Shown: piece by piece, positions 5,311 to 62,560 of the stretch
Numbering within the stretch: the first letter of the stretch is position 1
Layout: each line of letters begins with the position of its first letter
Source: Anolis carolinensis
Taxonomy: Eukaryota
Assembly: GCF_035594765.1 (NCBI RefSeq)
Contig: NC_085846.1
Span: 21,005,190 to 21,069,189, forward strand
Direction of reading: 5' to 3'
DNA: 64,000 nucleotides
Made by a program: the position numbers and the translations under genes
The notes under the pieces: generated by a model
The model's input: only the letters and a program-made list of their open reading frames with translations
Databases searched by the model: none
Told to the model about the DNA's origin: nothing

Positions 5311-6258
5311 ATGTCAAACATGGAAATGAAAAATCAAACAAGGATTTCAGAATTCATTCTTCTTGGATTTGAGGATCTACATTATCTGAAAATTCCCCTC
5401 TTCCTGCTATTTTTCTTCATTTACATTCTGACATTAGCTGGAAACCTTCTCATCATTATACTTGTTGTAACTGATCAACACCTTCACATCCCAATGTATC
5501 TTTTCTTAGGAAACTTGTCTTGCCTGGAAGTTTGTTCCAGTTCAACCATCCTGCCTAAGGTACTGGCCAGCTTCCTACTGACCAACAAAGCCATTTTGAT
5601 TAGGGATTGCATGTTGCAATATTTTTTCTTCTGTGGGTTTACTGGCACAGAATGTTATCTTCTCTCTGTGATGTCTTATGATCGGTACATAGCAATATGC
5701 AAACCACTGCACTATGCCACACTTATGAACAACAGGTTCTGCAGAAACATGGCATTTGTATCTTGGCTAAATGGCTTTCTTGCCAGTGCTGTTGTAGTTT
5801 TATGTATGTCACAGCTAATTTTCTGTGGTCCAAATGAAATCAACCATTTCTTCTGTGACTCTCCTCCAGTTTTAAAGCTCTCCTGCAGTGACACACATGC
5901 TGTTTCCATGGTGATATTCCTTCTCTCTTCTGCATTTACATTCCCCCCTTTTATCCTCACTTTGATTTCTTATGTGTGCATCATATCGACAATTTTGAGA
6001 ATATCCTCTGTAGCAGGGAGACAAAAGACCTTCTCTACGTGTTCCTCTCATCTCCTTGTTGTGACCATTTTCTATGGAACTCTCATGTCTGTGTATGTGT
6101 TGCCTGAAACCAATAAGGTGATAAATCTGAAAAAGATCTTCTCCCTCTTCTACACCATTTTGACACCTATGGTGAATCCTTTTATCTACAGTCTAAGGAA
6201 CCAAGAAGTCAAGATGGCTGCAAAGAAACTGTTTCATAAGTGTTGGACAATAAGTTGA
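5311..6258 (+). CDS. Olfactory receptor, class II (OR11A/OR6-like), intact, 315 aa
   Basis: Single coding exon; NQT sequon, LHIPMYLFL, MSYDRYIAICKPLHY, KTFSTCSSHL, PMVNPFIYSLRN. First ATG 5311 follows splice acceptor TTTTCTAG (5301-5302); the ORF-track start 5278 is TTG. Confidence 0.96.
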   Translation: MSNMEMKNQTRISEFILLGFEDLHYLKIPLFLLFFFIYILTLAGNLLIIILVVTDQHLHIPMYLFLGNLSCLEVCSSSTILPKVLASFLLTNKAILIRDCMLQYFFFCGFTGTECYLLSVMSYDRYIAICKPLHYATLMNNRFCRNMAFVSWLNGFLASAVVVLCMSQLIFCGPNEINHFFCDSPPVLKLSCSDTHAVSMVIFLLSSAFTFPPFILTLISYVCIISTILRISSVAGRQKTFSTCSSHLLVVTIFYGTLMSVYVLPETNKVINLKKIFSLFYTILTPMVNPFIYSLRNQEVKMAAKKLFHKCWTIS

Positions 6259-6660
6259 GCAAACACACACACACACACACAGTCTTCCAATTGCAGTTCT
6301 CTTCTATCTGCCCATCGTTAAACTAAATGTGTATTTGCTGAACAATTTTCGAATTTTGTTTTTATCAGTGGATTTTTCAGAACAAATAGGAACACGATGT
6401 CAGTTCCTCATGAAGAGTGTATGTCAAATTTAGGAAACATGATGTGGACCCCATGATGTTGCTGAATTTCATTTACCATAATCTCAAGTCACATGGTCAG
6501 TTAAGAGGCATGGAGAGCATTCAATGCAGCCAACATCTGGAGGCCCATGGACACACACCTTTGTGTATAATAATAATAATAGCTTGTGTGTAAATCAAGA
6601 AAGTATGTTGCCTCTAACATGGATGGACTAAATATTGCACCAGGAGACATAACTAATGAG

Positions 6661-6938
6661 CAGGCATGTAGGCCGGGTGGAGGGGGCTTGAGGGGCTTCA
6701 GCCCCCCCAATTCTCAGGGTGGTCCACGAAAAAGCCTTAAATTTATTATTTAAACTGTTATGTTTATTCCTATCATGATCTGATCACCATGCTCAATATA
6801 TCCCATATGCATGGCGGTATTGGGTAAACAATACGAAAGGTTTGCTAGGATTTAACCCTCTCCTGCTCAGACTCAGCCCCCCCCCCCCCGAACCAAAATC
6901 CCAGCCCCTCCCGAAACAAAATCCTGGCTATGGGCCTG
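6661..6938. mobile_element. hAT non-autonomous element
   Basis: TIRs CAGGCATGTAG / CTATGGGCCTG; perfect 8-bp TSD CTAATGAG (6653-6660, 6939-6946); second copy at 20141-20404. Confidence 0.9.
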
Positions 6939-61964: not shown

Positions 61965-62376
61965 TAAAACATCTGAGGTGAGCTAATATAGAAAAAAATG
62001 TATCATGAAGAATGTTTAATTTATGTTAAATTGATAATGTCAAAGGAAGGAGAAAATTATCGGAAAATACTTTGTTAAAATTAATTCATTGCACTTGATA
62101 TGTTGATTTTAATCAGCAAAGGTTTGCTTTAGAGACTTATTTGGGGGAGGGGTGTATTTTCAACTCTTGGATGGTTGAATCTGTGAATACAGAATCCATG
62201 GATGTAGAAAGCTGACTAAAACTCAGTTTTCTTTGTCTCTGCCCATGATTTGCCCACAAATAATCTCTTAGAACTTCACATTTAACACAATTTCTCAAAA
62301 GGTTTTTGTAAATTAATTTAAATGCATGCTGCCATTTTTGTTCCAGATATAATTATTTATTTTTATTTTCTTTCAG

Positions 62377-62560
62377 CTCAGCAAAGGGAGAATGCTGGAG
62401 ATAAATTCCTAATAAGCTAATGCGCCCTCAGTTGCTTGCTGTCTTATCACATGCCAACTTTCCTATTGAAAGGAAACAAGGATTTGATTCCTCTGTAACT
62501 TTCACGTCCCACGACAGTGTTACTATCAAAAATGAATAAAATCTTTAAACAAAACCTTCC
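62377..62560 (+). terminator. Albumin non-coding exon 15 with polyA signal
   Basis: TTTTCTTTCAG acceptor 62375-76; AATAAA 62535-62540 followed by GT-rich downstream sequence. Confidence 0.75.

Follow-up and report, generated by a model that had tools for sequence, protein, structure and literature searches.

The stretch of DNA analyzed here (the window) covers 64,000 nt of the 1.85-Gb Anolis carolinensis genome assembly of 211 contigs (C6:21,005,190-21,069,189). It carries an intact, single-exon olfactory receptor (OR) gene on the plus strand (5311 to 6258; Pfam 7tm_4, E = 4e-53), the catalytic exons of a gamma-like group IV cPLA2 gene on the minus strand (8480 to 23598), a second intact OR gene on the minus strand (39383 to 40351; 7tm_4, E = 3e-50), and an albumin-family gene on the plus strand, referred to as gene 1 (coding sequence, 44961 to 61964). 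This gene order had been proposed in an earlier, sequence-only reading of the window, and the coordinates together with Pfam and structure matches agree with it. Likewise, no ANKRD17-type or albumin-family gene was found upstream of gene 1. In the cPLA2-type gene, the exon with the GVSGS motif matches cPLA2 structures (E = 3e-11), a weak PLA2_B match to one exon (E = 0.002) falls below the cut-off, and further cPLA2-like exons are present. Its putative assignment to the PLA2G4C (gamma) type is plausible. That type is marked by a cPLA2 catalytic domain without a C2 domain and by synteny with LIG1 and ELSPBP1/BSP, of which a catalytic exon and the synteny are seen here. Two segments (33026 to 33769 and 52741 to 53097) presumably represent CR1/LINE fragments.

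Gene 1 is complete, as the sequence-only reading had it, and consists of 15 exons. The 14 coding exons (44961-45045, 46688-46745, 46948-47083, 48318-48529, 49159-49291, 51037-51134, 52224-52353, 54898-55112, 56447-56579, 57626-57723, 58145-58283, 59772-59995, 60833-60965, and 61920-61964) have AG/GT ends and join into an open frame of 612 amino acids; they are followed by non-coding exon 15 (62377 to 62540), with an AATAAA signal at 62535 and an alternative acceptor at 62382. In ALB, the domain pattern repeats over 14 coding exons, which a non-coding exon 15 follows, and gene 1 displays this same layout of the albumin superfamily. Its product contains three Serum_albumin domains (PF00273; E = 1e-142, three stretches) and is identical over all 612 amino acids to RefSeq XP_003224548.1 (P0122), annotated as "alpha-fetoprotein [Anolis carolinensis]". 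UniRef H9GH08 is the same 612-aa protein, and UniRef models of 630 and 633 aa are longer variants.

All 14 introns of gene 1, including the 3'-UTR intron (61978 to 62376), are supported by contigs from putative RNA runs. Thirteen of them are seen as splice joints, of which that of intron 9 is shifted by one or two bases and has loose ends that agree with it; a spliced piece covers intron 11. Both acceptors of the last exon are used (joints 61977->62377 and 61977->62382). The joint depth is approximately 25,000 in runs X17 and X20, which stem from two studies, whereas in X19 and X21 the joints are missing or have a depth below 5; the RNA label of these four runs is guessed, and contig depth cannot rank genes. 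These contigs show splicing and sample-dependent abundance, and nothing beyond. Upstream of the coding sequence, the promoter region (44807 to 44900, plus strand) contains a TATAAAA box at 44894 and two HNF1-like sites (44807-44819 and 44860-44872) with three mismatches each, at a window background of 0.22 per 300 bp. A further HNF1-like site lies 154 bases before the ATG of the neighboring gene described below, the same distance as in gene 1. Both promoters were scored with what we take to be the HNF1 consensus, and the sites are putative and weak. The claim that the introns and promoter had been kept is nevertheless well founded, with 14/14 introns in contigs and the TATA box in place.

A second family member, absent from the sequence-only reading, begins just beyond the window, 2.5 kb past its end and 4.6 kb past the gene 1 stop codon. 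This gene 2 (C6:21071730-21083854, plus strand; 606 aa; P0046, XP_008114671.1) is 46% identical to gene 1, and in Anolis sagrei one fused 1,243-aa model covers the same pair. A genome search with PF00273 gave 23 matches, of which 17 lie in the gene pair, 5 at GC (C5:11.88 Mb), and 1, with a stop codon, reaches only E = 0.57; with emu ALB as the query, 18/18 matches fell in the pair. These searches recovered the gene pair and GC and no true ALB; they score the best candidates only, so that a strongly decayed remnant could escape them. The second copies found in Phrynosoma, Pogona, Elgaria, Podarcis, and Rhineura join gene 2 in a quick 55-row tree, with a modest support of 88. This suggests an old tandem duplication, which probably arose before iguanians, lacertids, and anguimorphs diverged. 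Two albumin-family proteins filed under a bacterium (P0004, Lonsdalea quercina) and a fungus (P0180, Cytospora) group with Anolis gene 1 and mammalian ALB, respectively; these filings are likely database contamination.

The affiliation of gene 1 was analyzed in a 67-row FastTree phylogeny and in 31-row IQ-TREE phylogenies under LG+G4 and LG+C20, rooted on coelacanth and including three amphibians; ten of the 41 named rows were left out of the 31-row trees. All 10 squamate rows form one clade (support of 100/100) within AFP/AFM (100/99 in two models) and apart from ALB (97/95). Forcing the squamates together with sauropsid ALB was rejected (AU P of 9e-7 and 7e-10 under the two models), as was forcing gene 1 with ALB (AU P of 6e-29). 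A grouping of the squamates with bird and turtle AFP was not rejected (AU P of 0.415); the unconstrained tree tentatively places them elsewhere than as the sister group of those AFPs, at a fork with support of 73/52. Snake "serum albumin-like" proteins fall inside the squamate clade in the quick 55-row tree. At the residue level, Cys34 is present in the three ALB rows (3/3; dog, emu, and Chelydra) and is replaced by Ala in gene 1, and gene 1, chicken AFP, and turtle AFP have in common an additional Cys (ALB position 474). Judged from these sequence comparisons, the window gene is of the AFP lineage and not an ALB orthologue, and its earlier label as an albumin locus has to be corrected.

Gene 1 keeps 33 of the 34 disulfide cysteines of dog ALB, and position 253 (exon 7, 52224 to 52353) is Ser; the gecko and snake rows likewise depart from Cys253. 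With Cys253 replaced and Cys474 added, two cysteines of gene 1 may be unpaired or re-paired. Gene 1 also lacks Trp214 of mammalian ALB. Because Cys34, Trp214, and one disulfide cysteine are missing, gene 1 is, as far as its sequence tells, no like-for-like albumin.

The gene pair is embedded in a 724-kb region without N, in which 35 OR matches of at least 250 aa were found, 29 upstream and 6 downstream of the pair. The three nearest upstream and five of the downstream ORs, including the one at 5311 to 6258, form a single clade with support of 100. Three gamma-like cPLA2 copies, located in the window and at C6:21.10-21.12 and 21.17-21.18 Mb, are interleaved with the ORs on both sides of the pair (4 of 8 exon probes in frame in the paralogue search). 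A LIG1-type gene is found at C6:19.93 Mb, and fn2 exons at C6:20.876-20.882 and 21.226-21.342 Mb account for more than 40 of the 66 genome matches listed. This large fibronectin type II array resembles an expanded ELSPBP1/BSP family. In human, LIG1, PLA2G4C, ELSPBP1, and BSPH1 adjoin on 19q13.33. With LIG1-type, cPLA2, and fn2 genes found together as in this human set, PLA2G4C is likely at home here and the AFP pair is likely the immigrant. The same region contains V2R-like receptor exons within the OR cluster (C6:20.94-20.97 and 20.775-20.782 Mb), a probable OR pseudogene downstream of gene 2 with a frame change near its C terminus (C6:21,096,803-21,097,722), and four single-exon ORFs of 379 to 445 aa from stop to stop (C6:21.354-21.390 Mb), which are putatively natterin-like or of the DM9-repeat type.

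In birds, AFP lies beside ALB in the ANKRD17-RASSF6 block; an ALB orthologue would be expected to adjoin the 5' end of ANKRD17. The corresponding old site in Anolis lies on the same chromosome, approximately 21 Mb from gene 1, with an IL8-family exon at 42.28 Mb, an ankyrin-repeat/KH gene at 42.36-42.47 Mb, and COX18-like exons at 42.48-42.49 Mb of C6. Compared with the human gene order, its neighbors identify the ankyrin-repeat/KH gene as one of the ANKRD17 type; the chemokine is of the CXCL8 type. The COX18-like label is putative and based on motifs; PF02096 did not locate the gene, and Pfam was silent on its first exon. The interval between the chemokine and the ankyrin-repeat/KH gene (C6:42.281-42.359 Mb) spans 78 kb, contains no N, and is 39% repeat masked. 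No albumin-family trace was detected when 234 family queries were run over 200 kb at this site (best E = 0.066), and the same queries gave a best E of 0.035 in a negative control region (C5:13.1-13.5 Mb). The earlier suggestion to look here for a retained or pseudogenised ALB or AFP hence yielded neither at the level of these queries. At the DNA level, comparison of the gene pair with the old interval gave 193 matches versus 215 for a control interval, and three non-masked matches of 51 to 56 bp outside exons. The control region on C5, a putative SHROOM/SOWAH-like neighborhood, had been a candidate for the ANKRD17 site and was rejected on these gene labels; it contains putative Gypsy-like and DIRS-like retrotransposons with long open frames (C5:13.175-13.180 and 13.246-13.265 Mb).

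RASSF6 would be expected to separate the albumin genes from CXCL8. It was not found in the interval with PF16517, PF00788, or sequence motifs, and no positive control worked for any of the RASSF probes. Three exons of a RASSF2-like gene on C10 used as probes gave a best E of 0.037, outside the interval; one of these exons searched against the genome returned only itself, and a degenerate pattern gave 7 matches versus 8 for its control, with C10 alone real. RASSF4 was likewise missed genome-wide by the same probes. A loss of RASSF6 (and RASSF4) in the anole is possible, as is an insensitivity of the probes. Directly after the COX18-like gene lie Ig light-chain-like V genes (C6:42.48-42.54 Mb), and GC is on a different chromosome, C5. 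The ancestral GC-ADAMTS3-COX18-ANKRD17 block has therefore been broken more than once.

The end state is an intact, intron-bearing gene placed in the AFP clade, with a second copy, an empty donor interval, and a host array on both sides. We consider it probable, with fairly good confidence, that an AFP-lineage gene now present with a tandem copy in the OR/PLA2G4C array moved there as DNA early in squamate evolution and serves as the likely adult albumin. A segment with AFP and its promoter would have been transposed at the DNA level in an early squamate. A retrocopy does not fit, because it would be without introns and gene 1 has 14. A single inversion is ruled out: it would have pulled ANKRD17 and CXCL8 apart and cut the array in two, and neither is broken. 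Where the earlier reading had left the choice between a relocated and a duplicated locus, a DNA-level relocation is supported, with introns and promoter kept and the old site empty, and an extra copy beside a retained original is not. The simplest path would be a duplication, after which a single deletion removed the old ALB-AFP(-RASSF6) block, an order and mechanism that we infer from the end state. A possible but doubtful alternative is that at least two intrachromosomal inversions were nested, or that a cut-and-paste event took place without a duplicate stage, with ALB lost separately: donor and host share one chromosome, 21 Mb apart, and the donor block is itself rearranged, yet both sites would have had to re-close almost exactly, and one deletion accounts more simply for the missing ALB, AFP, and apparently RASSF6.

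With no ALB found, gene 1 probably takes the place of serum albumin in the adult, by analogy with what is known of the family and with the python. It would then be a secreted liver product that transports fatty acids and other ligands and sustains oncotic pressure. In PMC5597892 (Tables S13 and S14), the Burmese python "serum albumin" transcript has human AFP as its KEGG match; its level in fasting liver is 45,720 FPKM, versus 2 to 25 in four other organs, and peptides of the protein are reported in plasma with 48% coverage; this protein was compared with gene 1 by annotation and stands outside our trees. The python data point to a liver expression that persists beyond the fetal stage, in contrast to the silencing after birth or hatching that marks AFP. 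Gene 1 could instead still be fetal, with gene 2 or another protein replacing albumin in adults. Its AFP ancestry fits such a role, and the expressing runs could stem from any stage of development. We hold this to be decidedly improbable, given that the python counterpart is abundant in the liver and plasma of feeding snakes, according to that study, and that of the two genes it is gene 2 whose branch is longer (0.67 versus 0.32 for gene 1 in the LG+C20 tree).

High-level transcription in some samples, a snake counterpart that acts as serum albumin, and an identity to turtle ALB (44%) close to that to turtle AFP (48%) would also suit a fast-evolved true ALB orthologue mislabeled as AFP, but the AU tests under two models, the lack of Cys34, and the AFP-type Cys474 make this very improbable. 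An assembly misjoin that put gene 1 among the ORs is hardly credible: short-read contigs from four runs or studies do end in repeats within 40.95 to 44.06 kb, with none listed that spans 41 to 44 kb, but two misjoins would be needed, as one OR subfamily and cPLA2 copies flank the pair on both sides, no N occurs in 724 kb around the pair or in 200 kb of the old site, which is itself closed and lacks the gene, unique-sequence depth is alike on both sides (X1, approximately 19 to 26), and disrupted synteny is reported across squamates in PMC12400806.

The relocation of an AFP-lineage gene as DNA can be extended to a tentative and rather unlikely scenario. In the squamate ancestor, AFP with its promoter would have been copied into the LIG1-PLA2G4C-OR array, escaped the postnatal silencing of the albumin locus, and become the adult albumin, after which a single deletion in the ANKRD17-CXCL8 interval would have taken out ALB, the old AFP, and RASSF6. 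If true, squamates would be a natural experiment on the locus dependence of AFP silencing, and a whole clade would live on a protein of fetal lineage.

Broussard, Rodriguez, and Austin (2022, Mol Phylogenet Evol 169:107435) reportedly described squamate AFP genes, ALB loss, and disrupted synteny. With reference to this work, PMC12400806 describes squamate genomes as devoid of ALB and their albumin-family synteny as disrupted; the species for which it gives tandem AFP copies are lacertids, Anolis sagrei, Sceloporus, Hemicordylus, and skinks. The sequence-only reading could not say whether the locus had been described; the outline (ALB loss, disrupted synteny, and tandem AFP) had been. The relocation is real and mostly known in outline, and the gene is already annotated. 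No publication naming the OR/PLA2G4C flanks of squamate AFP was found in a literature search judged from its search entries; the exact donor and landing sites may be unreported, and the figures of Broussard 2022 may already show the flanks. A locally gap-free assembly confirms an anole without ALB, in which the albumin-like plasma protein is likely of the AFP lineage. The departure and arrival sites of the gene are the added detail, and with them the order of events becomes testable across geckos, skinks, snakes, and the tuatara. The labels "albumin" and "AFP" in squamate annotation do not mirror orthology.

Among known systems, RefSeq XP_003224548.1 and UniRef H9GH08 show no difference from gene 1. 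Bird and turtle AFP share its clade (46 to 48% identity), the extra Cys474, and the lack of Cys34, but differ in their location beside ALB, which is established for birds. Mammalian and avian ALB resemble gene 1 in their three domains, 15-exon layout, liver-type promoter, and likely role; in contrast, they form a separate clade (41 to 44% identity), possess Cys34, and lie elsewhere. The squamate AFP genes described in PMC12400806 are the same family member as gene 1, with ALB absent, synteny disrupted, and tandem copies. Finally, the snake "serum albumin" of python, pit viper, and cobra belongs to the squamate clade with gene 1, on a long branch and at 43% identity, and may be orthologous to either gene 1 or gene 2; its python form is abundant in liver and present in plasma.
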